From Paraspadella gotoi (lineage: Eukaryota > Animalia > Chaetognatha), in the NCBI GenBank assembly GCA_051294375.1, contig CM119266.1, positions 6,775,431 to 6,839,430 of the forward strand: DNA of 64,000 nucleotides, read 5' to 3'. This document shows, one piece after another, positions 2,571 through 57,032 of the stretch; the stretch's first letter is position 1; every line of letters starts with the position of its first letter. The position numbers were made by a program, and so were the translations under genes. The notes below the pieces were generated by a model. It saw nothing but the letters and a program-made list of their open reading frames with translations, did not search any database and had not been told where the DNA came from.

Positions 2571-4142
2571 TTCTTTTATATATTTATTTATTCTAAATTT
2601 ATTCTTCTATATATTAATTTATTTAATTATTTGTTTATTTGTGTTTTTTTTTTATCAAATTTGAAAGGCAAGTTTATTTACTTGTTTAACTTTATTTTGA
2701 TTTTTACAGATGATGCAAAACAGAAAAATTCGTCGTTCACTTATTGTTGGATGCAGTCTCCAAATGTTCCAACAAATCGCGGGCATCAATACAGTCATGT
2801 ATTACTCAGGTTTTTTTTTCTGTAAAATAAAATTCAACCTCGTGATTTCATAAACTCTGTTTTAATTCAATGTTCCTTTTTTTTCTTACAGCGACCATAA
2901 TAAAAATGTCGGGTGTGACTTCGGATTCTGCCGCTGTTTGGCTGGCGGCGCTGACTGCATTCATCAACTTCGCCTTTACTTTCGTCGGCCTCGCTCTCGT
3001 CGAGAGGGTGGGGCGAAGAAAACTTACCCTAGTGTCGCTCGCTGGTAAGGATGTTAAATGTGTTATTCCTTTAACCATTTTTGTTAGTTTTCAACTTAGT
3101 TTTCTGTAAAAAAGACAAATTTACGTATTTTTCTACTATCGATTCCTTTTCGGATTTGTTTACTTAATACTTATACTTAGTTATAGTTAATTAGTTTTTC
3201 TGTTTTCCTGTAACTTTTTAATCTTAATTTCCTTTTCTTGATTTGAAACAATGTTTGAGGCGTGACAATCAGCTTGGCCTTCCTCGCCATCGGCTTCCAA
3301 CTCTCAGCCTCCGATTCGCCGAACACGACATCACGTGATCCGATCTATCCTAACACGACAAACGCACGTGCGTGCGCCGCCGTCGCCACGTGTACCGTTT
3401 GCGCGCAAGAAGAAAAATGCGGATTTTGTTACGAGGAGATTGGAGGAAAAATAGGTGAAGAGGACTTGATAATAAACAAACTCGGAAACTATAATTAATG
3501 ATTAAAATTAACAATTAAAGATGATAAACAATTAAAGTTAACAATTAAATTAAAGAAAAATTGAAAATTAAAATTGAATGGAAATTACAATTAAAATTAA
3601 CAATTAGAATTGACAATTAATTCTAACAAATCAAAATTAAAAGAAATGTCACAACTAACAATATAAATTAGCAATTAAATTAAATAAATAAACAATCCGG
3701 TCTCCAGGCAACGCTTCTTGTCTTCCCGTCGAATATTCGAGAGACACTTCGAAGCCAACGTCGCCTTATTTCTGCAACGCGACGACGACGACGACGACGA
3801 CGACGAAGACCAACGCGACGAAGGAAGAAAGTCAAGTTTGGGCTTATGATTATTGTCCTTCGCGATACGCGTGGATGTCAACTGGTGAGTTTAATTAAAA
3901 TTAAAATTCCATTATTTTTAATTAAAACAAAATTAGTCAAAATAATTTTAAACGATAGTAAAAGATAGTAAAAGTGCCGCTTGAAACTGATAAACTCTCT
4001 CTCTCTCTCTCTCTCTCTCGCCAGTCGCCATGGTGATCTATTTGATGTTCTTCGCCCCGGTATGGGTCCGATGCCGTGGACAATCAACGCTGAGATTTAT
4101 CCCAATTGGGCCAGATCTATGGGCATCGGAATTGGTGAGGTT

Positions 4143-11809: not shown

Positions 11810-14800
11810 TCAGTTGACCCTTAACAACCCCCAGACAAGCGTTACCCCCGCCACACCCATCATCGCCCTCGTAAAAACGTCGCCCGGGATACAGCCTTTT
11901 CCTCCGTTCGAATCCACTCTCAACGGAATCTCATTCGTTCTGGCTTTCAGCCAATCGTAGGCCTCCGTCGCTCCCGCCTTTTTCAATTCGGGACCAATCA
12001 CGTCGAGGCATTGCTTGTGATATTCGTTGAGCCAATGGCGTTGTCGGTTGCTAAGCAACGAAACGTCGATTAGTTTTGGTTCGTAGGGAACGAGAGTGAC
12101 GGTTGTGATGCGGAGGAAGGGACGACCGGGCGTTTCGAAAGGAAGCGCGACCTGGAGTGGGGGAGATAAAGTGGTGAAATTCATTCCTTTGATTATTTGA
12201 CTAATCATTAATCAAGCTAAATCAGAGGGATTAAAAAGATTTTACTAATTTATTGATTGTGATATGAATTTGATTTACTTTCAAGGGAGTTTGTCTACAG
12301 AACAGTATGTTTTAAGTAACGTAAAACAAAAATATATAATGTATTTTGCATTATTTAATCTCTTTATTTGTATTTTTTAAGAAGTAGTGATGAAGCTATT
12401 ACTATAGAATAATTAAAATTATAAACAATTAAACTTACCCTCTCGGCGAAGCAGATGTTTTCTAGCCTCACCCCAAACATCCCTGCCAAATAGTAGCCCG
12501 GCTCGTCGGAGAAAAACTGACCCTCCTTAACCACCTCGGCCCTGAGCCCTGGCGGCTCGTGGACAGAGAGGTAAGAGCCGATGCCGTGCCCCGTGCCGTG
12601 TAGATACTCCATGCCCCGACGCCAGAGGGGCGAGCGGGCTCGGATCTGGAGTTCGTTGCCCGTCACCTGGGTTTGGAGGTGGGTTGGGGTGTGTGAGTGT
12701 GGCGAAAAATGAAGACGTGAGTCGGTTGAATGTGAAAAATATCGGGTTACTGAAGGTGACGGAAAAGAAAAGTGAGAAATGGGAAATAAATATAAAAGGT
12801 TGGAAATGAAGTGTTGGAGACTGAAGATAGTAAATAACGATTGGAGATTGTATTAATAAATACAATTTTAGTTTTTCAAAAGAATTACTTAACAAAAAAG
12901 AACAAAACAAATATGAGTAAGAAAAAAAAACCAAAGAAGAAAAAAGAAAAGAAAAAAGAAAAGAAAAAAGAAAAGAAAAATGAAACGAAAAAAGAACCCT
13001 GGTTCATTAGCCTTTCTCCCTTATTTCTTATTGTCATGACCTTTGATGACCAATTGATTAATGAACATGAAAAACCCACCTTGTTGTCCGGAAAAACAGA
13101 CATGGCCAGATCGATTTGTCCCATTAGGACTCGAGTGTAGGAGTCGATCTGTAGTTTGTTCGGAGTTCCGTAGTGAAAAGTGCGAGTCACGTCCGTGGTG
13201 CCATCTCTGTACAAGGGCGGCCAGATGAATTTTTTGATACGAAGGAAATGTATATAAATATTTCTTAATACTTAGTTTATATATATATATATTTTTCCTT
13301 TCTTTTAAATCAGTTTAAAACTTATATAACAAATACATTTTGTTAATTAAATATAAATTAGAGTTAAAATCAAATTAAAGGATTAAGGAACAAAAACGGG
13401 GGCTTTTGGAAAAGAGAGCCCGAAAATGAATTAAAAATTAAAGATGAGCGCGAGAATTGATTCGGCCGCCCCTGTACTGTCCGCCGGAATCGAGCAACAA
13501 TTGTCCGGCGCCGATTTTTGCCGGAGATGAATTTTTTGAGGGATTGTAGTGGATGATGGCGCCTGAAGGGGGAGGAGGAGGGGAGGAGGGGGAGGAGGAG
13601 GAGGGGGCGAAGGAAGAAAAGAAAAGGGAGAGGAGGAGGAGCGGAGGAGGGAGAGAAGAAGAAAAGGGAAGGAGGAGGAAGATAGAAAAGGGGAAAAGGG
13701 AAGATAGAAAGGGGAGGCATAGAAAAGAGGGAGAAATAGAACAAGAGGATAGAAAAGAGGAAAAGGGGAGGCAGAGGCATAGAAAAGGCGGAGGATAGAA
13801 AAGGGAAAGGGAGGATAGAAAAGGAGGATAGAAGAAAAGTGTGAGGATTAGAAAAAGGGGAGAAAAGGGGAGGATAGAAAAGGGAAGGGAGGCATAGAAA
13901 AGGGGATGATAGAAAAGGGGGATGATAGAAAAGCGGAAGGAAGATAAAAGAGGGAGGATGAAAAGCGAGAAAAGCGGGAAGGAAGAGGACAGAAGGGATT
14001 AGATAGGCAAGAGGTGAATAGAAATAAAAGATGGAGAATAATAAAAGAGGAAAAAAAAAAAAACATCAGTGATGAGAAGCGAATTAAAAATAATGGCCCA
14101 AAAAAAAAAAAATTGGTAAAAGTATCAAAAATTTATATATATGTATTAAAAATTTAAAATAATAAATATGAAGATATAAAACGAAGTAACATTCGCCAAT
14201 CTTTCCCCTTCCCCCCCAGCCGCCACCCCTCACCATTGCCCCATATCCGCGATCGATCGGGAAACTCTCCCCCATAGCTCTCCTCCTTACTCTTCCTCAT
14301 CGTCCCCACCTCCTCCGCCACTTCCGCTTCCGTCGGCCGCTCTCCAGCGTCGACGCGCCGCTCCAGCGCCGCTGCGTACTCGATCAACGCCGCCGCGTCG
14401 CGGACGTGCGCCGCTCGCATCCCGGCGCGCTCCGTGGGATTCTTGACCGCCTTGGCGTCGCGGATCGGCGGCGGCGTGAAGAGGCGGCGGTGGGCGGGGA
14501 TGCGGCGGAAGATCTGGAATTGGGGGCGTGGATGGGATGTGGAAGAGAAGGAAAAGAAAAAAAGAGTGAAAAGGAGTCAAAAAGAGTGAATTAAAGAACG
14601 TGTATATTCTTGTGAACAAAGTTAGTTGAAATATAAAATTGAAAAAAAATAAGTAAATGAAATCGGGACAACCGTTACTAATTAATTAGTTAATTAATTA
14701 ATTAATAGCGGATGATTTTTTAAAAAAATTTTATGAGGGAAAAGGAAAGAGAGTAAGACTATTCTTATTTTCTCAAGAATTTTACAAAATGTTTGTTTAT

Positions 14801-16287
14801 TTTAGAAAAAACGAAATCCGAAAGAAAATGAACACTTTATTGCGAAATAGGATATTCTGCGTCTGTAAATATTTTTAATTTTCAACCCCTTTAACCTTGA
14901 ACTTTAACTTTAACCTTATCTGAGACTTAAAAACGATTCAAGTCGAAACGAACTACGTATAAAGGCCAAATCAAAAAAAAAAAAAAATTATTGTGCTAAA
15001 AAAAAACATTGAACGATTCAAATACTTCCCAAATTGATTCTTATAATTAGTAACCTTTCGCGCACTGACCTTTTTTCGAACTTACCTCGTAATTGGAATG
15101 CTCGGAAAACCAAAACTTTAACTTTGGATCCTCCAACAGTTTGTCGACTTCGTCGTAGAAATCTTCGTAGTCGCGAATCTCCACATCGACGTTTGGGCAA
15201 AAGGAGGATGTCATCTCCGACTCTTTGATGTAGTAACCGAAAGTCTGGGGACAGATAAAGCGTTTAACGTTAACGATAATTTACATTTACATTCGCAGCT
15301 ACATTGTTGCTTTGTTTTGTCAGCATGGCTCATGAAAAATGAAAATGAGTTACAACTTGAATTTCGAACAAAGAAAGTCTTTATTCTGAGACTCAAGCGA
15401 TCCTTTGCTGCTGCCGAGAAAGCGAGACCATCGGAATANNNNNNNNNNNNNNNNNNNNNNNNNGAGGGAAGGCGCACGACGGGCGCTTTCGAAAGGTAAA
15501 GCGCGACCTGGAGTGGAGAAAAGTGCCGTTGTCAAGAACCATTCCTTTGATTATTTGACTAATCATTAATCAAGCTAAATCTGAGGGATTTAAAAAAGAT
15601 TTGTACTAATTTTATTGATTGTGATATGAATTTGATTTACTTTCAAGGGAGTTTGTCTACAGAACAGTATGTTTTAATTAACGTAAAACAAAAATATATA
15701 ATGTATTTGCATTATTTAATCTCTTTATTTGTATTTTTAAGAAGTAGTGATGAAGCTATTACTATAGAATAATTAAAATCATAACCAATTAAACTTACCC
15801 TCTCGCGAAGCAGATGTTTTTCTAGCCTCACCCCAAACATCCCTGCAAATAGTAGCCCGGCTCGTCGGAGAAAAACTGACCCTCTTACCACCTCGGCCCT
15901 GAGCCCTGGCGGCTCGTGGACAGAGAGTAAGAGCCGATGCCGTGCCCCGTCCGGGTAGATACTCCAGCCCCGACGCCAGAGGGGCGAGCGGGCTCGGATC
16001 TGGAGTTCGTTGCCCGTCACCTGGTTTGAATGTGGGTTGGGGGTTGTGAGTGTGGCGAAAAATTGAAGACGTGAGTCGTTGAATGTGAAAAATATCGGGT
16101 TACTGAGGTGACGGAAAGAAAAGTGAGAAATGGGAAATAAATATAAAAGGTTGGAATGAAGTGTTGAGACTAAAGATAGTAAATAACGATTGGAGATTGT
16201 ATAAATAAATACAATTTTAGTTTTTCAAAAGAATTACTTAACAAAAAAGAACAAAACAAATATGGGAAGAAAAAAAAACCAAAGAAG

Positions 16288-16319
<32 letters not shown>

Positions 16320-19300
16320 CGAAAAAAGAGCCCCTGGTTCATTAGCCTTTCTCGTTTATCTCTTATAACACATGTACCATTGACCTATGACAATGACCAT
16401 TGTCAAGACCTTTGAATGGACCAATGATAATGAACATAAAAACCCACCTTGTTGTCAGGAAAAACCGACATGGCCAGATCGATTTGTCCATTAGGACTCG
16501 AGTGTAGGAGTCGATCTGTAGTTTGTTCGGAGTTCCGTAGTGAAAAGTGCGAGTCACGTCGTGGTGCCATCTCTGTACAAGGGCGGCCAGATGAATTTTT
16601 TTTTGTGATACGAATAAAAATGTATATAAATATTTCTTATACTAAGTTAGAATATTTTTCCTTTCTTTTAAAACTCAGTTAAAACTTAATATACAAATAT
16701 GTTTTTGTTAATTAAATATAAGTTAGAGTTAATAAATCAAATTAAAGGATTAAGGAACAAAACGGGGGCTTTTGAAAAGAGAGGCCGGAAATGAATTAAA
16801 AATTAAAGATGGAGCGCAAGAATTTGATTCGCGCCCCTGTACTGTCGCCGGAATCGAGCACATTGTCCGGCGCCGATTTTTTGCCGAGTGAATTTTTTGA
16901 GGGATTGTAGTGGATGATGGCGCCTGAAGGAGGGGGAGGAGGAGGAGGAGGAGGAGAAGAAGAAAAAGGGAGGAGGAGGAGGAGGAGGATAGAAAAGGGA
17001 AAAGGGGAGGATAGAAAAGGGGGAGGATAGAAAAAGAGGGAGGATTAGAAAAAAAGGGGAAAAGGGGAGGATAGAAAGGGGAGGATAGAAAAGGGGAGAT
17101 AGAAAAGGGGATGATAGAAAAGGAAGGAAGATGAATAGGGGGAGGATGAAAAGCGGAAAAGGGAAGAAGAGGACAGAAGGGATAGATAGGCAAGAGGTGA
17201 ATTAGAAATAAAAACGGAGAATAATAAAGAGGAAAAAAAAAAAAAACATTCAGTGATGAGAAGCGAATTAAAAAAATGGCAAATTTAAATAATTTAAATT
17301 AAAATAATAAATAATAAGATATAAAACGAAATAACATTCGTCAATCTTCCCCTTCCCCCCCAGCCCCCTCCCTCACCATTGCCCCATATCCGCGATCGTC
17401 GGAAACTCTCCCCCATGCTCTCCTCCTTACTCTTCCTCATCTTCCCACCTCCTCGCCACTTCCGCTTCAGTCGGCCGCTCTCCAGCGCCGACGCGCCCTC
17501 CAGCGCCGCTTGCGTACTCGATCAACGCCGCCGCGTCGCGGACGTGCGCCGCTCGCATCCCGGCGCGCTCCCGTGGGATTTTCTTGACCGCCTGGCGTCG
17601 CGGATCGCGGCGCGTGAAAGAGGCGGCGGTGGGAGGGGATGCGGCGGAAGACTGTATTGGGGGCGTGATGGGATGTGGAAGAGAAGGAAAAGAAAAAAAG
17701 AGTGAAAAGGAGTCAAAAAGAGTGGATTAAAGAACGTGTATATTCTTGTAACAAAGTAGTTGAAATATAAAATGAAAAAAAAAATAAGTAAATGAAATCG
17801 GACAACCGTTACTAATTAATTAGTTAATTAATTAATTAAATAGCGGATGATTTTTTAAAAATTTTTATGAGGGAAAAGGAAAGAGAGTAGACGATTCTTA
17901 TTTCTCAGAATTTTACAAAATGTTTGTTTATTTTAGAAAAACGAAATCCGAAAGGAAAATGAACACTTTATTGCGAAATAGGATATTCTGCGTCTGTAAA
18001 TATTTTTTAATTTCAACCCCTTTAACCTGAACTTTAACTTTAACCTTATCTGAGACTTAAAAACGAATTCAAGTCGAAACGAACTACGTATAAAGGCCAA
18101 TCAAACAAACAAAAAAATTATTGTGCTAAAAAAACATTGAACGATTCAAAACTCCCAAATTGATTCTTATATTAGTAACCTTTCGCGCACTGACCTTTTT
18201 TGAACTTACCTCGTAATTGGAATGCTCGAAAACCAAAACTTTAACTTTGGATCCTCCAACAGTTTTGTCGACTTCGTCGTAGAAATCTTCGTAGTCGGGA
18301 AATCTCCACACCGACGCTTGGGCAAAGGAAAATGTCATCTCCGATTCTTTTGATGTAGTAACCGAAAGTCTGGGACAGATAAAGCGTTTAACGTTAACGA
18401 TAATTTACATTACATTCGCAGCTACATTGTTGCTTTGTTTTGTCAGCAATGGCCCTCATGAAAAATGAAATGAGTTACAACTTGAATTTCGAACAAAGAA
18501 ATGTTTTATTCTGAGACTCATAGCGATCCTTTGCTGCTGCCGAGAAAGCGAGACATCGAATACTACTTCTAACTCCTCTCTCTCTTCTCTCTCTCTCTTT
18601 CTCTCTCTCTCTCGTCTCTCTCTCTCTCTCTCTCTCTCATTTTCTCTCTCACAGCCCTAACCTGTCCACAATCCGGTCGCAGATGTTTGACCATCAAATC
18701 GCCGACTCTCCTCTTTCCGACGAACCACTTGAGTGGAAGGCCTTTGGATTTGGGACGATGACGAACGAGTAGACGACGGGGTTGTAGGGAACGTCTGATC
18801 CACGGATGTTGAGAAGCCAGGCCACCTTGGGGCGGAGGGGCACGGTTATGGTTGAAGGACTTTTCTTTGACTGGCATCAGATAAGCCCATTGACTCATTA
18901 TCAAACGGACATCATTAACGGACTTCTTAAAGCTGACAAGCCTATAATTGGCCGTCGCCCATCAACCCACCTCCATCAAGTCCAGCACCAGCAAGACATC
19001 AGCCCCTTCCTCCTCCATCTTTTCACGAATCATCGTCGTCTTCTCTTCCCACGTGACGCCAGCGAACTTCAAAGGGTGAATCTCGATGTTTCTCTCAGAT
19101 GGGCGTGGCGGTCGGTCTGAGAGATTTTAGTCGCCACTTTTAGAACTTTGGTCGGTTATTTCAACGGCTTATTCATTTATGTTTCAGCTCGGTTGGAAAA
19201 ATTGCTTGAGGTAAAGCTCAAATTAATTGTTTAACTATATTAGACTTTAAAATTTTTTATTAAAATTTTAAAATAAATGTAAAAATTTAATATATTTCAC

Positions 19301-19667
19301 TAGATATTAGATTTAATTATATTCTTCATATAAAGTATATTTTTTTATAATATAATGGGATGTTAGTGTTGTTATATAATCTGTTGGATATAAACGTTTA
19401 CAATAAAGGATTATTATTATTATTAAAATAAAGTTTTCAAAAATTCATAATAATTATAGCAACGTCGAAACATTTTTTAAGAGTTGCAAATCGTTTCTCG
19501 TTCTCCTCAGTCTTTAGAAAACCTGTGGTCCAATCCGCGTCGATCAAATCAACTTCTAATGGAATCAGCGTCACATTTTTGCGCAAGATTTTCGGGTTTG
19601 TCGTCGCCAATTCCCACTCCTGGTTGAATTATGTTAATGATGAGATGGCATGTCTTATCATTTGTTT

Positions 19668-19765
<98 letters not shown>

Positions 19766-20679
19766 GACCTTGATGGAAAAAAGCTTAGGATCGGCGCCGA
19801 TTTTCGATCCCTTCTCTAGTCGGTCACCCAACCAAGTCCACATCGTGGGCACCAATTCCAAAATGCCCCAGTTGCAGTCCAACTCGTTTTCAGCCTGAAA
19901 AATGAGGAACAGTCAAAAATGTTTTTGGACAATGGAAAACCGGGGCAAAGCCAAAAAGACGATTTCAAAAAAAAACAAAAAAAACGACATTATAACATTA
20001 AAACGTTCGAGTCGAAATCTCATAACTGATAGAGTAAGTAGGGTTCTATGGGAAGTTAACGAAGAAAAAAAGTCCGTTTCAAAAAATAAAACTTTGTAAA
20101 CAAAAATAAACTTTGTTTACTCTCTCAATATTAATAAGAAAACATTTAATCAGTCTTGAGTCTCATCTTTTGTTAAAATTAATAAATCCTATGGCTAATG
20201 TTCGATCAATACATGGCGAAAATACCAACAGAAGGGTGACGTGCAATTATGGTCCGTTTAAAATAATACTGAATTTTATTTCCCAAGTTTCAAAGGCGGT
20301 GCGAAGACAATTGAGACTCAAGAGACCCGCCCTCACCCCTCGATCCTACCTGCAAGAAATATCGTCCGTCCGTCCAAATGACGGCGGCGTCGTCAACAAC
20401 GCCGGCAACGCCGGCCGATCCCGAGAATCCGGACAACCAACGGCGCCGCTTGTCAAAGTCGCCGATGTATTCGCTGATGTGTTGATCGGCGGCGCTGACG
20501 ACGTAGGCGTCCAAAGCGGCGTCTCGCATTCGGCGCCGGATGGCGGCCAATTTTGTGTCACTGGGGGTCAGGGGGGCGTCGGAGCATTTGCGGCGTTCCG
20601 ACGCCGGTTTAAAGGCGGCGTCGATGGAGACCACAACGACGACGACGACGACAAAGAGGAAGGATAATCTCGTTGTCAT
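11810..20679 (-). CDS. Xaa-Pro aminopeptidase (aminopeptidase P, M24B) with signal peptide and GPI-type hydrophobic tail (XPNPEP2-like topology), 11 exons after collapsing the duplicated segment
   Basis: Exons 20679-20350, 19894-19769, 19619-19523, 19116-18971, 18825-18662, 15244-15086 (duplicate 18369-18210), 14513-14234, 13562-13472, 13206-13080, 12666-12439, 12151-11810. Motifs DQHISEY, WLSGFSGSAG, IWTDGRYFLQ, VAWLLNIRGSDVPYNP, KNPTE. All five metal ligands present: DSGGQY, DGTTD, HGTGHG, EPGYY, RLEN. Hydrophobic N-terminus ([21 protein letters not shown]) and C-terminus (AMMGVAGVTLVWGLLRVN). Several small indels occur in exons 5-7. Confidence 0.9.
13210..13476 (-). mobile_element. TA-flanked inverted-repeat (Tc1/mariner-type MITE-like) insertion forming intron 8 of the aminopeptidase
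   Basis: Minus strand reads cag TA[CAGGGGCGGCCgaatcaatt ... aattcatctGGCCGCCCTTG]TA cagagat. The arms at 13209-13231 and 13455-13477 are inverted repeats (19/23 identical by eye). The same structure appears in the duplicate copy at about 16575-16843. Confidence 0.7.
13680..13990. repeat. Degenerate purine-rich minisatellite (GGATAGAAAAGGGG-like unit) in an aminopeptidase intron
   Basis: Repeated 'gatagaaaag' cores with G/A spacers; also seen in the duplicate at about 16985-17165. Confidence 0.75.
15439..15463. other. Assembly gap (25 N); other gaps at 24018-24027, 29621-29645, 51679-51703, 55608-55618 and 62340-62349
   Basis: N runs seen directly. Confidence 0.98.
15464..18561. repeat. About 3.1-kb second copy of 12113-15438 (aminopeptidase exons 6-10 plus the start of exon 11), probable assembly artefact
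   Basis: Near-identical collinear sequence on both sides of a 25-N gap (15439-15463). Differences are mostly 1-2 nt indels that break codons. Confidence 0.9.
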
Positions 20680-22392: not shown

Positions 22393-22582
22393 GTGGCTCA
22401 TTGAGTAAAGCCATCAGCTCATGACCATTAGGTACCGGGTTCAATCCCAACGGAAAGCGTGAGAACAGCCGAAAACCGCCTTGGGGGCGTGGAAAACCCT
22501 CAAGCCTGGTTCCAATCCCCCGTTCCATAGAAGTTAAGGATAGTAATCATCAGCCCACTAAGCGCTTTATCCACATAGCCTA

Positions 22583-23660: not shown

Positions 23661-26600
23661 ATGAAATTCGTTGTTTTCATCGTTTTGACCTTTTGTTCGT
23701 ACGCGGCGGTTGGATCTTTTAACGGTATTAAATCTAATGATTAAAAACAAGTTATATAAGTGTTTTAATGATCGTTTTAACTCTCACACTGTCACTGCAA
23801 CGATGAGACGAGAACTCTTCAGTGACCTCATCAATAAAACAACAAGAAATTTAAATAATATCGATAACATCGCAAAGTGATCTCGGAGTTAATAAACGAG
23901 ACTGTGAGAAAGTCTTGATTAAAAGCAAGAATCCTTCCAGGATGTATCCTAAGAGAGCCAAAGCTTAAATAGAATTTGGGTAGTGGGTGGTAGTGTCGGT
24001 TAAGCCATTGCGAGAGGNNNNNNNNNNCCTTAAATCGAGGGGTCAGATAAGTTTCAACTACAACAACAACATTTTCAGCTCCTGGTCTCTGCGCTCGAGT
24101 CATCAGAGGTCAATGTGTCACTGAGGAAAATTGCAAAGGAAGAATATTTCGTTCTTTTTGCGGGGAAAAGACGAAAGACGTTTGTTGCAAGGGACCGAGT
24201 GAGACGGGTAAGGGAGAGAGAAGGGGCAGGGAAGGAGGGAGGGGGAGAAGAGTAAGGGAGGGAGAAGGGGTAGGGAGGGAGGGAGGGGAAGAGGGAAGGA
24301 AAAAGAGAGAGAAAAGAAAGATAGAAAGAAAGATATAAAAAACAAAGAATAAATAAATCAATAAATCAATAATAAATAAATAAATATGTAGTCGGGCATA
24401 GCAAAGTTCACCCCGCCTCTAAGCATGACACGTTCAATCTTGACCCGGTGGCTCATTGAGTAAAGCCATCAGCTCATGACCACTAGGTACTTGGTTCAAT
24501 CCCAACCCGGTACCTACCCGGCGGGAAGTGTGAGGACGGCCGTAAGCCGCCTTGAGGGCGTGGAAAACCCCCAAGCCTGGTTCCAAGCCCAGGACCCGTT
24601 CCATAGCTGTTAGAGGGGGTTATAGAAGATAGTAATCTTCAGCCCACTTAGCGCCTTATCCACAAATAAATAAATAAATAAATAAAATGGTTCTCAGTCT
24701 AGGTCAAATTAAAATTCTATTCCGATCGCCAGCGGTGTTTGGAGCGACGTCAACGTCCCCGTTAACAACAACGACAACAACTCAGGCGCCGATTTTGGCG
24801 GAAAAATTCATTTCGAAAAATTGTGGAAAAACTCGTTACGACGACGACGACGACGATAATGACGATGAAAATGTTATCAATCGTCGCATCATTGGTGGAC
24901 ACGAAGCCAGAATCGGCGCCTGGCCTTGGATTGTGAGTTTCACAGTTTGTGAGTCGCAGTTTGTGATTCCGTGAAGGGTAGAACCTGAGTTAGAATTTAG
25001 AAGATTCTTTTCAAGTCGAGACCATCAACTGTTACCGGTTCAGGCTATATTAATAAAAATCCATAAGATGGAAAGATTTTGGATGAATATTTTGTTTCCA
25101 TCTCACGTGAATGAAGGTGATGTGACATCACATTTAGTTTCGATTTCACAAATTAAGGTTTCGTTGAAACACAACGACGAACACCAATGCGGCGGAAGCC
25201 TAATCGGACGCCAATGGGTGCTAACAGCAGCTCACTGTTTTGTGGAGTAAGTCAATTTTTACAGTCTCTCTTTTCAATGTTGTACTTCTATTTCACGGTT
25301 TTGTTCCTCGCTTTAATTTAAAATTTTTACCATTTTATTTAATCTGATTTTTTTTTTAAATTAGTTAATGCACAAAGTTTTACCCAGACAAATAATAGCA
25401 ATCGTTTTAATCAGCAATTTTCTTCTTCACATAAGTTTGTCATTTGTTTTTTTTTTCTTCAAGAGATGTCTCTACTTATCTCCTCTCTTTCCTGTTGCAA
25501 CTAAACCGAAAATCAACAAAAGACAAACGCTTTCCTCCATAGATTAAGCAGCCCCGTTGGATGGACGGCGACTGCCGGCGAACACGACGCCAACGACGAA
25601 ACCGGACACGAATTCGTCGTCGGCATCAACAGAATTTTCCTTCACGATTACAACAGCCGAAGAAAAGTGAACGACGTGGCTCTGCTGTTGCTGGAGAAGC
25701 CTGTGCCTTTCGATATCGGGGATGATGGAGAAGTCGTCGGCTTCATCAACGACATCTGTCTGCCATCGGAGGCTGATATCGTGGAACCGGGGACGATTTG
25801 CCATCTCATGGGATGGGGACGGTTGGGGAATGGTAAGGTCTTTCGAAGACAAACTATGAGCGTCTTCCTTTTTAGAAATAAATCAAGTAATTCTTTTTTT
25901 ATTTTCGATTGCAGTATCACGTTGATATATTTTTATATCCAGATAAATTACAAATATCCATAATTTTTAGTAAAGTTATTAAAGTTTATGAAGTGAAATA
26001 AGTACAGTAGATAATAATATACTAAATAGTGGTAAATACATTACGAGCCTTTCATTCTTGCGCCCTTTTTCGACCACTAAATAATAACATGGTAAATATT
26101 AAATAGTAAATATGAAACCATATACATTGCTTACTAAAAATGCATAAAATATAAATAGAAATGATCCCTAAGCCGGTCCAGCCTCTGACGTCCTTCAAGA
26201 AGTAGAGATGAAGCTCCAACCTCTTCGTTCCTGCATCGAGACCTACAACGACACACTCGACGGAGTCTTGCAGCGCGACCCTTACGTCGTCGACCAGAAG
26301 ATGCTTTGCGCGGGATTTAAAGAGGGAGGGAAAGATTCTTGCAGGGTGAGATCTGAGGTCAAGGGTGGGTCTTGGGTCTTGGGATCTGAGGTCTGGGATC
26401 TGGGATGTTAGGTCAAGGGTGGGTGTTGGGTGATGGTAATACCACAATCTGTATTGAACAATGCATTGGACTGGCGATAAAGTCCCACTTCTGCTATATG
26501 TATGCAAAATGAGGGAGTATTTCACTGAGATTATTCCGGAAGTTATACAGGTGTTGGTTATTTAATATTCGTTCGTTTATTCACTCATTAACTCAATTCT

Positions 26601-26939: not shown

Positions 26940-28049
26940 GAATCAAAAAATTCGAACAAAAAATTTAGGGTCGCGAAATCTCAAAACAAACTTTTTGGTT
27001 TGTTTATTAATGAATTTGACTAAATTCAAACTATTTAAAATATGGTAATTTTACGTAATTCGGCGAACAATTTTTTTTTTTTGGTATTATATTTGCTTCC
27101 TTGCGATTTCTTCTCCTACATCTGTAGTTCATACACGCTTGTGAATTATTTCTGTATCAATAAAACAACAAACATATGTGAAATAAAAATTGATTTTATT
27201 ATTTAATATGTATTGCTCCAATATAAAAAAGTTAATTACATAATTACATACTCTAAAAATACCGAAGAAGTTAGGTGGCGCTCTTCACCAAACCGCGCCC
27301 CCTTCAACGCCCCCCTTCAACGCCCCCCTTCACCGCTTTTCCCCGAAATGCGACGCAGCACATCGACGTCACTTTGACGCGCGTCCACTTGGCGGCGTCA
27401 CGTGGGCGATTGTGACGGCGCGTGGCGAATAATGGGTGACGCGTGCGAAGAGGGCGCTAATTGTCGACGCCTTCGCTCGATCGAGGATTTAATGGAATCG
27501 AAAGAATCAATTGTCTGATCGACATTGTCGTCTTAATTGCTCATTGCTGACCTCTGGTTGTCGTTATTTTTGCCAGACCATGGATGTACTATTTACCGTC
27601 GTAAACATGTAAACAGATTGTAATAAAGTAGTCAGTACGAGCCGTAACTTAATGTACTTGTGTGCGCTTACTTTATACAATATACATCATATCATTCTCG
27701 AGAAATCTATGCTATGTCTAATTGTCTATGTCTAATTGTCTATGCCTACGTTGGAACAGTTGCGTCTTTATAGGATTTAGCGGAAGTCCGCTGGGAGAAT
27801 CCTCCTCTTCTCCTCATTCTCCTCCTCCTATTTCACCTCCTCCTCATCCTCTTTCTCCTCCTCCTCCCTCTTTCTCCTTCTCCTCTTTCTCTTCCTCCTC
27901 TTTCTCCTCCTCCTCTTCCTCTCCCCTCTTCTTATTCTTCTCAATTTTATCCTCATTACGATTTGTTTTCTCTTTCTTCTCTTCCTCTTCCTCTTCTTTC
28001 CTCTTCCTCCTCCTTATTAGATGGAATCTTCGCTTTCGCCGTCGAAGAG

Positions 28050-28400
28050 AAGAGAATAGGAAAAGAGAAAAGAAGAGAAGAAAATAGGAAAAGAGAAAAG
28101 AAGAAAAGAAAATAGGAAGAAAATAAAATAGGAAAAGAGAAAAGAAGAAAAGAAAATAGGAAAAGAGAAAGGAAGAAAAGAAAATAGGAAAAGAGAAAAG
28201 AAGAGAAGAAAATAGGAAAAGAGAAAGGAAGAAAAGAAAATAGGAAAAGAGAAAAGAAGAAAAGAAAATAGGAAAAGAGAAAAGAAGAAAAGAAAATAGG
28301 AAAAGAGAAAAGAAGAGAAGAGAATAGGAAAAAAGAAAAGAAGAGAAGAAAATAGGAAAAGAGAAAAGAAGAAAAGAAAATAGGAAAAGAAAAAAGAAGA
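28050..28400. repeat. 28-bp purine-rich minisatellite (AAAATAGGAAAAGAGAAAAGAAGAGAAG-like), about 12 units
   Basis: Visible tandem units; the 28-aa periodicity of the spurious minus-strand ORFs equals 3x28 nt. Present again at about 29845-30190 in the duplicated block. Confidence 0.85.
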
Positions 28401-29370
28401 GAGGAGAATTGAAGAGAAGAGAGAAGGAGAAAAGAGATGACAAAAAAAATAATTTCACTCACAAACGTTTCTTTTCTGTGCATCTTATTTTTTAATTTGT
28501 CTATTTATTTATTCATTTATTCCTTTTGCTTTACAAATGTACTCCAATCTCTTTGTCTTTTTCGTTTATTTATAAAAGTCGTTACGTTCAAATCTTTCAC
28601 AACTCTAAGTGATTAATCTCACGCAAGAAATTCTCTTAATTTCTGACTTCCATAGCTAGCGATTTTTATGGACGCGAGCATTTGGAATAGCGAGCGAAAT
28701 AGCGAGCATAGAAAAGCGCGGGATTTCCGTTTCGACCGAAACTCGTCTCTCGCGCGCAAAGCGACGCGTTGAGTCACGTGATCGTGCGAAGTGAGTCACG
28801 TGATATCGTGAATTATCTGTTGTCGATTTGGACGAAGTCTTGCGACGTGAATGAATCGTGAGGAACGAATTATCGATAACGAAGAATGAGAAATGAACGA
28901 AACGACGAAGAAGAATTGAATGAATTCGTTAAGAAATGAGATGATTCGTTAAGAAATGAACGAAACGACGAAAAATAAATGAAAATTTGAAATTTCAAAC
29001 GATAGTAAAACAAAGAAAAATTCAAACGCGCCCCCCCCCAAAAAAAACCTCGAAAAATGACGCCAATTAAGATTACAACTTTCAAGAGATTTGAAAATGA
29101 GTGGAAAAAATGAAAAAGTTAATCCAATGCGGAATTTGACTCACGCAAAATGCAGTCACTTTGTTGGTGAGAATTTCACGTCAACTATTATGAAAAATTG
29201 CCGTATTATTGCTTACTTTTAAAGATTAAAATATTTATATTTCGAAAGTTAAGATTAAGGATTAAGTTAGTATTTGATGTGTGAATTTTAAAAAGGTTCA
29301 ATTTATTAAGAATCACAGTTGGTGTCGTCCATTCATCCAAGTGAAACAGTTAAAAAATAGTTCTATCGAT

Positions 29371-29497
29371 TCATTGATAGGAAAGCCAAGCATTCTGGGA
29401 TTTGTTGATTGAAAGCTTGCAAGTTTCTGTTTTGTTATTATCTTGTAAGAGGGATGGAGTCCTTAAGCCCGTCCAAAGTCAGGGACAAGATAGCTTG
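29371..29497 (-). repeat. Dispersed ~130-170 bp repeat family, copy A (duplicated at ~31173-31298)
   Basis: Reverse complement shares agctatcttg.ccctgactttggac, ctcttacaagata, tgcaagctttcaatca and ttggctttcctat.aatga with 39221-39385 and 45716-45885. Confidence 0.8.
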
Positions 29498-29645
29498 TAT
29501 GTTGAATGAATGAATAATTGTTGTATTAAATTGTATTAAAACTACTGAAAAGCAAACTGAAATTCACTTTCGAACTGAAAATTGTATCGAAACCAAAAAA
29601 TGAAAAAAAGAAAAAAAAAANNNNNNNNNNNNNNNNNNNNNNNNN

Positions 29646-31420
29646 TTCTTTCTCCTCCTCCTCCTCTTTCTCCTCCTCCTCTCTCCTCTTTCTCCTCCTC
29701 TCTCTCTCCTCTCCTCCTCCTCTTCTTTTCTTCTCAATTTTATCCTCATTACGATTTGTTTTCTCTTTCTTCTCTTCCTCTTCCTCTTCTTTTCTCTTCC
29801 TCCTCCTTATTAGATGGAATCTTCGCTTTCGCCGTCGAAGAGAAGAGAATAGGAAAAGAGAAAAGAAGAGAAGAAAATAGGAAAAGAGAAAAGAAGAAAA
29901 GAAAATAGGAAGAAAATAAAATAGGAAAAGAGAAAAGAAGAAAAGAAAATAGGAAAAGAGAAAGGAAGAAAAGAAAATAGGAAAAGAGAAAAGAAGAGAA
30001 GAAAATAGGAAAAGAGAAGGAAGAAAAGAAAATAGGAAAAGAGAAAAGAAGAAAAGAAAATAGGAAAAGAGAAAAGAAGAAAAGAAAATAGGAAAAGAGA
30101 AAAGAAGAGAAGAGAATAGGAAAAAAGAAAGAAGAGAAGAAAATAGGAAAGAGAAAGAAGAAAAGAAAATAGGAAAGAAAAAAGAAGAGAGGAGAATTGA
30201 AGAGAAAAGAGAAGGAGAAAAAGAGAACAAAAAAAATAATTTCACTCACAAACGTTTCTTTTCTTGCATCTTATTTTTTAATTTGTCTATTTATTTATTC
30301 ATTTATTCCTTTTGCTTTACAAATGTACTCCAATCTCTTTGTCTTTTTCGTTTATTTATAAAGTCGTTACGTTCAAATCTTTCACAACTCTAAGTGATTA
30401 ATCTCACGCAAGAAATTCTCTTAATTTCTGACTTCCATAGCTAGCGATTTTTATAGGACGCGAGCATTTGGAATAGCGAGCGAAATAGCGAGCATTAGAA
30501 AAGCGCGGGATTCCGTTTCGACCGAAACTCGTCTCTCGCGCGCAAAGCGACGCGTTGAGTCACGTGATCGTGCGAAGTGAGTCACGTGATATCGTGAATT
30601 ATCAGTTGTCGATTTGGACGAAGTCTTTGCGACGTGAAGAAATTCGGAGGAACGAATTATCGATAACGAATGAGAAATGAACGAAACGACGAAGAAGAAT
30701 TGAATGAATTCGTTAAGAAATGAATGAATTCGTTAAGAAATGAACGAAACGACGAAAAAAAATGAAATTGAAAATTTTCAAACGATAGTTAAAACAAAGA
30801 AAAATTCAAACCGCGCCCCCCCCAAAAAAAACCTCGAAAAATGACGCCAAATTAAGATTACAACTTCAAGAGATTGAAAATGAAGTGGAAAAAAATGAAA
30901 AAGTTAATCCAATGCGGAATTTGACTCACGCAAAATGCAGTCACTTTGTTGGTGAGAATTTCACGTCAACTATTATGAAAAATTGCCGTATTATTGCTTA
31001 CTTTTAAAGATTAAAATATTTATATTTCGAAGAAGATTAAGTTAAGTGTATTAAGTAGTAGTTATAGTTAGTATTTGATGTGTGAATTTTAAAAAGGTTC
31101 AATTTTATTAAGAATCACAGTTGGTGTCGTCCATTCATCCAAGTGAAACAGTTAAAAAATAGTTCTATCGATTCATTGATAGGAAAGCCAAGCATTCTGG
31201 GATTTGTTGATTGAAAGCTTGCAAGTTTCTGTTTTGTTATTATCTGTAAGAGGGATGGAGTCCTTAAGCCCGTCCAAAGTCAGGGACAAGATAGCTTGTA
31301 TGTTGAATGAATGAATAATTGTTGTATTAAATTGTATTAAAACTACTGAAAAGCAAACTGAAATTCACTTTCGAACTGAAAATTGTATCGAAACCAAAAA
31401 ATGAAAAAAAGAAAAAAAAA
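29646..31420. repeat. About 1.8-kb second copy of ~27845-29620, probable assembly artefact
   Basis: Collinear near-identical sequence on both sides of the 25-N gap at 29621-29645; differences are mostly small indels. Confidence 0.9.
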
Positions 31421-31726: not shown

Positions 31727-47680
<15,954 letters not shown>

Positions 47681-55918: not shown

Positions 55919-57032
55919 AATTTAGGCTAAGTTTCGATGTCTCTGTAGTCTGTAAAATATATGAAGCAGGTTGATAAAAATTATGATATCTTCAGCTTCA
56001 AAATTTATACCCAAAAAGTCTTTTTAAAATCGTAGATAAGATAAACAGTAGGGTGAAGTGAAAGGTTGGAATCAAAATTTAGCACTTATATCTTAAAAAA
56101 TATCATATTAGTGAATACTAATCTGTAATTATTTTTCTTTTTTTACAAATATAGTAGCCCAGTCAGCTTAATTTGTATATATAGTACTACCCTTATATAA
56201 TGTCAAAATTTCAAAATGATTTTTTTTAAATTCCGAGAACAGATTCAGATTCCTTGTAAAAAGTTGATAAAATAAAATATAAATCTTTTTTAAAACTTAT
56301 GTTATTAAGCAGGTTATAATTATAAAAAAAGATATTTTTAAATTAGAAATTAAAAATCAGAATCTTAAATATAATTTTTTACATTCTTGACCAACTTAAT
56401 AAAAAAATTTTAAAAAAGAATTATTCTTTCCTATATCAACTTTTTGCAAGGAATCCAAATCCGATATTAAAATTTTAAAATTTACACTTTGAAGTTTTAG
56501 CCTATTATATATTTGTTATTATATATAAATATAGCTCACTAGTGCCCAATAATGTATAAAATTAAAAGATAAATTCTTCAAAGTATATTTATTGGTTTTT
56601 TTATATTCTATATGTTAAATTTTAATTTAATAAAGTTTTATTATTTTCACATCACTCTAATAGTCAGGTAACCTCACTACAAACTTTTTTGTACGTGCCA
56701 GGGCAAAGCCTTTAGATCCGACTTCATTGTAAAAAAATCATTATTTTAATATGTTTTTTATTTTCATGGACATATGAATTTTTATTTAAAAATTGTAAAA
56801 TTTGTAATCCTTACGTGATTTATTTGACAAAATGAAAACATCAAAACTCCATTGTAGCAAATATTGAAAAATTAAATCTTAAGAGATATTTTAACGACAA
56901 ACATTATTCTATAAAAAATATTTAAAATTTATTGAAAAAAATATATGGCAAATATCACGAAATTAATTTAGGCTAAGCTGCGACGTCTCTTTATAAAGCA
57001 AGTTGATAAAAATTCTGATGTCTTCAGCTTCA
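55919..57032. mobile_element. Decayed AT-rich DNA-transposon/MITE-like remnant
   Basis: Direct repeat aatttaggctaag...gttgataaaaatt.tgat.tcttcagcttca at ~55919-56000 and ~56965-57032, with an internal inverted pair gattccttgtaaaaagttgata (~56248-56268) and tatcaactttttgcaaggaatc (~56434-56455). Confidence 0.45.

Follow-up and report, generated by a model that had tools for sequence, protein, structure and literature searches.

The 265 nucleotides that split the metal-binding motif of a secreted aminopeptidase P gene are likely a dead transposon lying on an old intron site, with no sign of an intron-spreading family. Our leading interpretation, which we hold tentatively, is that an old Tc1/mariner-type MITE relic replaced an ancient intron and that the spliceosome removes it through a GG donor.

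The window, meaning the whole stretch of 64,000 nucleotides that was analysed, is part of an animal genome with abundant simple repeats, and contains genes for a sugar transporter, a protein that we take to be an SH2B-like adapter (Pfam gave no match), a secreted aminopeptidase P, a trypsin-type protease and a homeobox protein. A 36-nt tandem repeat with several frames open (35217-35648) is located within an intron of the homeobox gene. The models of the aminopeptidase and transporter genes keep frameshifts at noisy spots of the assembly; in an exon of the transporter (about 4055-4075, plus strand) a one-base frameshift is probably an assembly error. The aminopeptidase exons matched Pfam Peptidase_M24 and M24_C, and the best named matches of the protein came from insects, molluscs and a crinoid with an identity of at most 60%, while a homologue search with the last exon alone gave no match. 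The gene and the two exons next to the insert are the following.

11810-20679, minus strand: gene for secreted X-Pro aminopeptidase (aminopeptidase P); hand placement gave 11 exons and 10 introns, nine of the latter GT-AG.
13472-13562, minus strand: upstream exon, ending in ...DSGGQY plus AG, covered by contig 25 of run X9, whose loose end at 13563 enters the previous exon.
13080-13206, minus strand: downstream exon, A plus DGTTDVTRTF..., matching Pfam Peptidase_M24; the loose end of the X9 contig at 13077 enters the next exon.

The downstream exon also matched residues 422-461 of PDB 3ctz (E value 3e-6). Two Asp residues that are presumably metal ligands, those of DSG and TTD, are encoded on either side of the insert, the anatomy of which is given below.

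13212-13474, minus strand: putative non-autonomous Tc1/mariner-type relic, recognised from its sequence, 263 nt between two TA dinucleotides.
13455-13477, minus strand: 5' arm of the inverted repeat, holding a TA (13476-13475), the exon-final CAG and the GG donor.
13209-13231, minus strand: 3' arm of the inverted repeat, holding a TA (13211-13210) and followed by the AG acceptor at 13208-13207.
13472-13477 and 13207-13212, minus strand: 6-nt direct repeat GTACAG, which allows seven cut registers giving one mRNA.
13207-13471, minus strand: intron of 265 nt, most likely GG...AG, lying in phase 2 within the codon that follows DSGGQY, seen spliced in X9 contig 25, with a register that is ambiguous over 6 nt.

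The 263-nt element bordered by these two TA dinucleotides interrupts the Tyr-Arg-Asp codons of the gene. Alignment of the arms showed 19 matches over 23 positions (82.6%), with 13/14 in the core, and excision of 265 nt in the 13471-13207 or the 13469-13205 register restores LLDSGGQYRDGTTDVT. The first-pass annotation had described a TA-bordered element of this length with 19/23 inverted ends, the removal of which as 265 nt restores Tyr-Arg-Asp, and both its coordinates and its arms were confirmed. It had also assigned the ends to the Tc1/mariner kind, and the TA duplication and the CAGGG start do agree with IS630-Tc1-mariner elements: in passages of the literature on this group, maT elements start with CAGGG (PMC8472432) and a Tc1-like MITE starts with TACAGGGG (PMC4678618). 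TA is present on both sides of the element, but none of seven DNA runs contained an empty allele that would prove the duplication. The end match exceeds chance: of 3317 stretches of 285 nt drawn at random from the non-low-complexity part of the window, 5 reached the same best 14-mer match in any register, a count that may include the element itself and its second copy. When the geometry was fixed, the inverted-end score of the element was 19/24, compared with 2-13/24 in 26 other scored introns of the window and 4-12/24 in 23 distinct introns located at the same codon in other eukaryotes, none of which has inverted ends.

Prediction of the RNA fold gave a terminal stem of 14-15 bp between the arms, with 14 bp fully paired and a single difference that is a G-U pair; the predicted fold was more stable than shuffles (z -2.6, 1/200) and its interior is decayed. 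The first-pass annotation suggested that the paired ends bring the weak splice sites together; the predicted stem would bury the donor and the pyrimidine tract, and it could hinder U1 and U2AF as conceivably as it could help them.

The presence of the insert in genomic DNA was determined from seven runs labelled as DNA, from six samples and two studies, a contig being counted as bridging a junction when it had at least 31 letters on each side; X8, which reaches 11 letters into the insert, was not counted, and X4 was left out of the comparison. The acceptor junction was bridged in six of the seven runs (X1, X2, X3, X5, X6 and X7) and the donor junction in four (X1, X5, X6 and X7), while an empty (joined) site was found in none of the seven. 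X1, which may be the source of the assembly, covers the whole stretch by a single contig without gaps, its one differing letter not being at the junctions. X5, X6 and X7 bridge the donor junction without any listed difference there, and the claim that the insert lacks a usable GT donor is borne out by the contigs of these three runs and of X1. A 27-nt deletion allele at 13404, inside the element, is carried by X5 and is a sign of an old, unconstrained interior; together with the decayed arms, it points to an insert that is old and fixed. In X2 and X3 (sample S2) the contigs branch at 13468-13497 and the depth upstream drops by about a third to a half, which suggests a heterozygous exon variant.

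A further stretch of the gene is found beside an assembly gap.

15470-18530, minus strand: indel-rich second copy of part of the gene, abutting a gap of 25 N (15439-15463).

Comparison of this copy with the first showed 47 mismatches with 70 gap openings, and 83 mismatches with 75 gap openings, mostly small indels, and no second contig over the aminopeptidase exons was found in the seven DNA runs. A real gene duplication was rejected, since the copy is rich in indels, lies at a gap and lacks a separate contig in these runs. Runs of 25 N are, we assume, a mark of overfilled gaps, and the second copy is probably an artefact of this kind, at best a second noisy read and not a paralogue. Overfilled assembly gaps are described in parts of two reports (PMC3504050, PMC9635638). 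The use of the duplicate copy as independent evidence against a base-call error therefore has to be given up, as the copy is probably produced by gap filling. Another duplicated block, at about 27700-31400 around a 25-N gap (29621-29645), is probably an artefact of the same type.

Contig 25 of X9 (931 nt, depth 65) joins 13206 to 13472, skipping exactly 265 nt with 0 other letters, and its loose ends enter both neighbouring exons, which identifies it as a spliced transcript. None of the runs listed as containing this sequence is on record as RNA, and X9 is taken by guess as an RNA run; it belongs to a third study and another sample, whose donor may differ in genotype, and the result comes from one contig, in which minor forms are dropped. 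The junction reads TAC AGA GAT, which is the GG-AG product. The insert had been proposed to be spliced either as GG-AG or as GC-AG, and the first of these is the product seen in X9. The GC-AG product (13469-13205), which would read AGG and differ by one base, is absent from this run, as is the product of the CA|GT donor that would delete Tyr-Arg; the spacing between the Tyr and DGTTD is exactly one residue in all 91 scorable homologues (of 120). Two-step splicing of the stwintron type was rejected as well, the start of the intron not being G-GT.

Seven cut registers fit the same mRNA because of the direct repeat at the junctions: GG..AG, GG..CA, AG..AC, CA..TA, AC..GT, TA..TG and GT..TT. We infer the GG..AG register because it alone combines an AG end with a preceding exonic AG and the ancestral phase, and removal by the ordinary spliceosome as a GG-AG intron is, in our judgement, likely. 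The GG donor is weak, with a G at position +3; nearly all GG and GA donors of a copepod have an A at this position (PMC5714493), and GG is placed low among the non-canonical donors in the part of a study on human cells that deals with them (PMC6280755).

The same mRNA would result from SOS splicing (AKAP17A, CAAP1 and RTCB), triggered by the pairing of the ends, with cuts at the CA..TA or TA..TG borders. The seven registers are compatible with it, the terminal 14 bp pair as RNA in the predicted fold, and passages of PMC12779559 describe exonic DNA transposons removed in this way in worms and in human cells. However, the pathway is reported there as imprecise, with many junctions and indels, while one exact joint is seen here (in contigs that drop minor forms), and the arms are shorter than the 54-nt Tc1 repeats tested in that work (PMC12779559). 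The normal AG acceptor, the exonic AG before the GG and the location at a spliceosomal intron position also argue against SOS splicing, which we regard as improbable. The corresponding complete scenario, in which a transposon displaced the ancient intron in the metal-binding motif and is precisely removed in the SOS manner, by pairing of its ends and without a working donor, as a domesticated non-spliceosomal intron of an animal gene, is slightly more improbable still.

If the animal or allele behind the joined contig instead lacked the insert, there would be no splicing and the insert would be a disruptive allele. X9 does differ in sample and study, and does not cover the unique parts of the intron. 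However, an empty site was found in 0 of the 7 DNA runs, the decayed arms and the deletion allele indicate an old and fixed insert, and the exons are intact and identical to X9 (0 other letters), so that this explanation is highly improbable.

Metagenome contigs were scanned with a pattern consisting of the motif and a donor behind it, which returned 53 loci; the scan catches only intron-bearing genes, and shows that the position is widespread while saying nothing on how often the intron was lost. In 29 of the 53 loci a GT-AG intron was complete and shared the codon and phase of the insert, and for the other 24 no downstream AG and DGTTD exon was found within the contig sequence. The 29 loci represent 23 distinct peptides (median identity 0.65), 16 of the GGQY type and seven of the GAQY type. 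Human genes, we believe, also have an intron at this position. The position of the insert is ancestral and, loss and regain aside, the intron site was not newly created.

The exact match in position and phase to the ancestral intron would also be obtained if this intron had never been replaced, its donor having changed from GT to GG and its inverted ends having arisen by local template switching or selection for pairing. No further copies of the ends were found in the seven DNA runs, in keeping with such a history, and many donors of this genome are weak past the GT, one of them reading CAG|gtgccg. The GC-rich 19/24 inverted match with TA at both ends is, however, far above the values of the 26 window introns and the 23 homologous introns, the start matches known Tc1/mariner ends as far as these are described in the sources cited above, and the Arg in place of Leu is left unexplained. 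A decayed donor is quite unlikely.

The residue that follows the Tyr bears on the origin of the exon end. Among 28 homologues from named animals, three of them not scorable, it was Leu in 24 of the 25 scorable ones, Phe in one and Arg in none; the closest match (P0001) has a Leu where the window gene has an Arg, the third base of which (A) fits a Leu codon too. Arg was found after the Tyr in 6 of the 120 homologues overall, a set skewed to insects and molluscs, and in 2 of the 23 intron-bearing peptides. Since nearly all animal homologues have Leu and the window gene has Arg, we infer that the last three bases of the exon are the first three of the element. The residue is variable, and the change from Leu to Arg could therefore predate the insertion.

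According to the replacement reading, the insertion would have taken place at the TA within the Tyr codon, three bases 5' of the old GT donor, and the first bases of the element (CAG) would have rebuilt the end of the exon. Splicing from the GG of the element to the old acceptor could have been immediate, giving an in-frame mRNA with Arg replacing Leu. A later deletion would have taken the competing GT donor and the body of the old intron and left TA-CAG as the acceptor, and loss of the old GT would have ended a competing, frame-breaking product. The order may also have been the mirror of this one, the element entering at the TA in an old TACAG acceptor and a deletion then reaching back to the exonic TA, which would give the same product; the second repeat would have landed in the interior of the element afterwards. 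The ancestral acceptors end in CAG at 16 of the 23 distinct loci, as this route needs, and a single replacement would account at once for where the intron lies, for its TA flanks and GG donor, and for the Arg. Transposon insertion is a known way of gaining introns (passages of PMC3443670); a transposon replacing an ancient intron in place was not found in a literature search that covered few subscription journals.

The ancient intron may instead have been lost first, a TA-targeting element then inserting at an intron-free TAC AGA GAT and being spliced as GG-AG at once. The window gene has neither of the ancestral neighbouring introns (72 nt upstream and 61 nt downstream): the GT at +61, present in 16 of the 23 distinct loci, is absent, and the flanking introns of the gene are elsewhere. 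The absence of both neighbours favours prior loss and speaks against replacement. There are, moreover, just two TACAG sites in about 2090 nt of exons, leaving few places for a spliceable insertion, and parallel gains are common in Daphnia (43/90, in the portion of PMC4202315 that reports them). This history nevertheless requires a prior change of Leu to Arg and an exact landing on the old position, and at least 4 of the 23 other loci (L002, L011, L016 and L050) keep this intron without both neighbours, which makes missing neighbours weak evidence. We consider it rather unlikely as a whole; it would amount to a parallel regain at a proto-splice site and is the mechanism put forward in the first-pass annotation, reduced to a single old event. 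When replacement and loss with regain are set directly against each other, we lean slightly to replacement.

The annotation had further proposed a mariner-derived family that generates introns. An active or recent introner family that made many TA|CAG introns would be compatible with a transposon origin, and the TA duplication, the inverted ends and the length-neutral removal are those described for TIR introners in parts of PMC9860276. No other copy of either element end was found in the seven whole DNA runs at 80-82% likeness, a test that could miss a decayed family with arms of about 24 nt around dissimilar interiors, and no similar TA-bordered introns were found elsewhere in the window. 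The depth over both ends in the deep runs (X1, X2 and X3) was flat and that of a single contig, so that the ends look single-copy, and the arms differ from each other. Hand placement in four of the window's genes gave 28 introns, of which 27 are GT-AG without inverted ends, the GG-AG insert being the remaining one; the sample is small, hand placement favours GT, and RNA backs only the aminopeptidase introns that flank the insert. As the position is also not new, such a family is very unlikely. An ordinary intron at the same codon and phase in distant homologues, together with a lack of further copies of the ends, had been named beforehand as counting against the proposal, and this is largely what was found. 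A search of 27 selected frames among the 222 open reading frames of the window gave no transposase. Because neither a second copy of the ends nor a transposase was found, the transposon origin of the insert rests on its anatomy, on which we judge it to be likely.

Two sequences in the window bear on the question of further copies.

13355-13425, plus strand: fragment of a separate dispersed repeat with a GC-rich hairpin at its end, nested inside the intron.
39001-39012, plus strand: look-alike of the element end, not counted as a family member.

The fragment at 13355-13425 draws dozens of contigs, mostly of less than 90% likeness, over that part only; these contigs stop at about 13355 and 13425, short of the arms, and the interior repeat was rejected as evidence of a family. 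A related copy at about 32190-32364 (plus strand) has subterminal inverted ends that are imperfect, a hairpin at its 3' end and short tandem units, and both copies resemble non-autonomous elements of the Helentron/HINE type. The look-alike at 39001 had been offered as a similar end and receives no support: the 3 kb downstream of it contain no TA-flanked partner arm, and between 39012 and 54698 the minus strand showed no sequence resembling the end. It adjoins what we take to be a B-box-like motif, and at this place ARAGORN found no tRNA gene and Rfam nothing. Nearby, 39240-39282 (minus strand) gave a Twister-P5 ribozyme-like match (E 0.0036, below the gathering score), just downstream of which the sequence at about 39285-39320 (plus strand) looks twister-like by eye. 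A SINE-like repeat is present in two copies of opposite orientation (about 22400-22580 and 24420-24670), which presumably carry a B-box-like motif as well. Finally, TA-flanked inverted ends around a long imperfect inverted repeat (arms 56171-56298 and 56405-56532) were observed at 56049-56659, a probable MITE of another family.

The insert represents a single old event in one gene, and a new intron-generating family is not demonstrated by it. If the replacement reading is true, introns can share a position without having been inherited continuously, and studies of intron presence and absence would score such a takeover as conservation; a transposon would take an old site by borrowing its acceptor, which would ease the first step of intron gain. 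The insert is also a natural, apparently fixed GG donor within the catalytic motif of an otherwise GT-using genome. Being compact, it would also serve to test which machinery, the spliceosome or the recently described SOS pathway, removes elements of this type.

Comparison with the TIR/TSD introners (Gozashti et al. 2022, PMC9860276; 2025, PMC12130899), as portrayed in parts of these papers, showed that the insert is like them short and non-autonomous, with inverted ends and a target duplication, and that one splice site is carried by the element and the other comes from the flank, the length of the mRNA being kept. These introners are, however, multi-copy families at new positions, whereas the insert looks single-copy, is decayed and lies at an ancestral position, and its GG is not among the donors listed in those parts (GT, GC, GA and AT). 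The MITE-derived introns of Fritillaria borealis (PMC11282704; bioRxiv 10.1101/2025.08.15.670264, passages of each) share with the insert the exonic TAC before the intron and the inverted ends, and their AG..AC register is one of its seven; in that species GT-AG introns make up less than 10% and the non-canonical ones occupy new positions, whereas here 27 of 28 are GT-AG. The GA- and GG-donor introns of Eurytemora affinis (PMC5714493) resemble the insert by a constitutive GG after an exonic AG and a normal AG acceptor. They make up about 12% of the introns of that species, almost always with A at +3, at lineage-specific positions and with no inverted ends reported, in contrast to the insert, which is a single case with G at +3 at an ancestral position. 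The insert has in common with IS630-Tc1-mariner MITEs of the maT/DD37D-like kind (sections of PMC8472432 and PMC4678618) the TA duplication, the CAGGG start, the short arms and the non-coding content, and differs from them in that neither family copies nor a partner transposase were found and in that its interior holds a piece of another repeat. As in SOS splicing (passages of PMC12779559), a transposon with pairing ends leaves an animal mRNA without a GT donor; that pathway is imprecise and was mostly described for recent or engineered insertions, whereas the insert studied here has one exact junction, short arms and a location in a catalytic motif.
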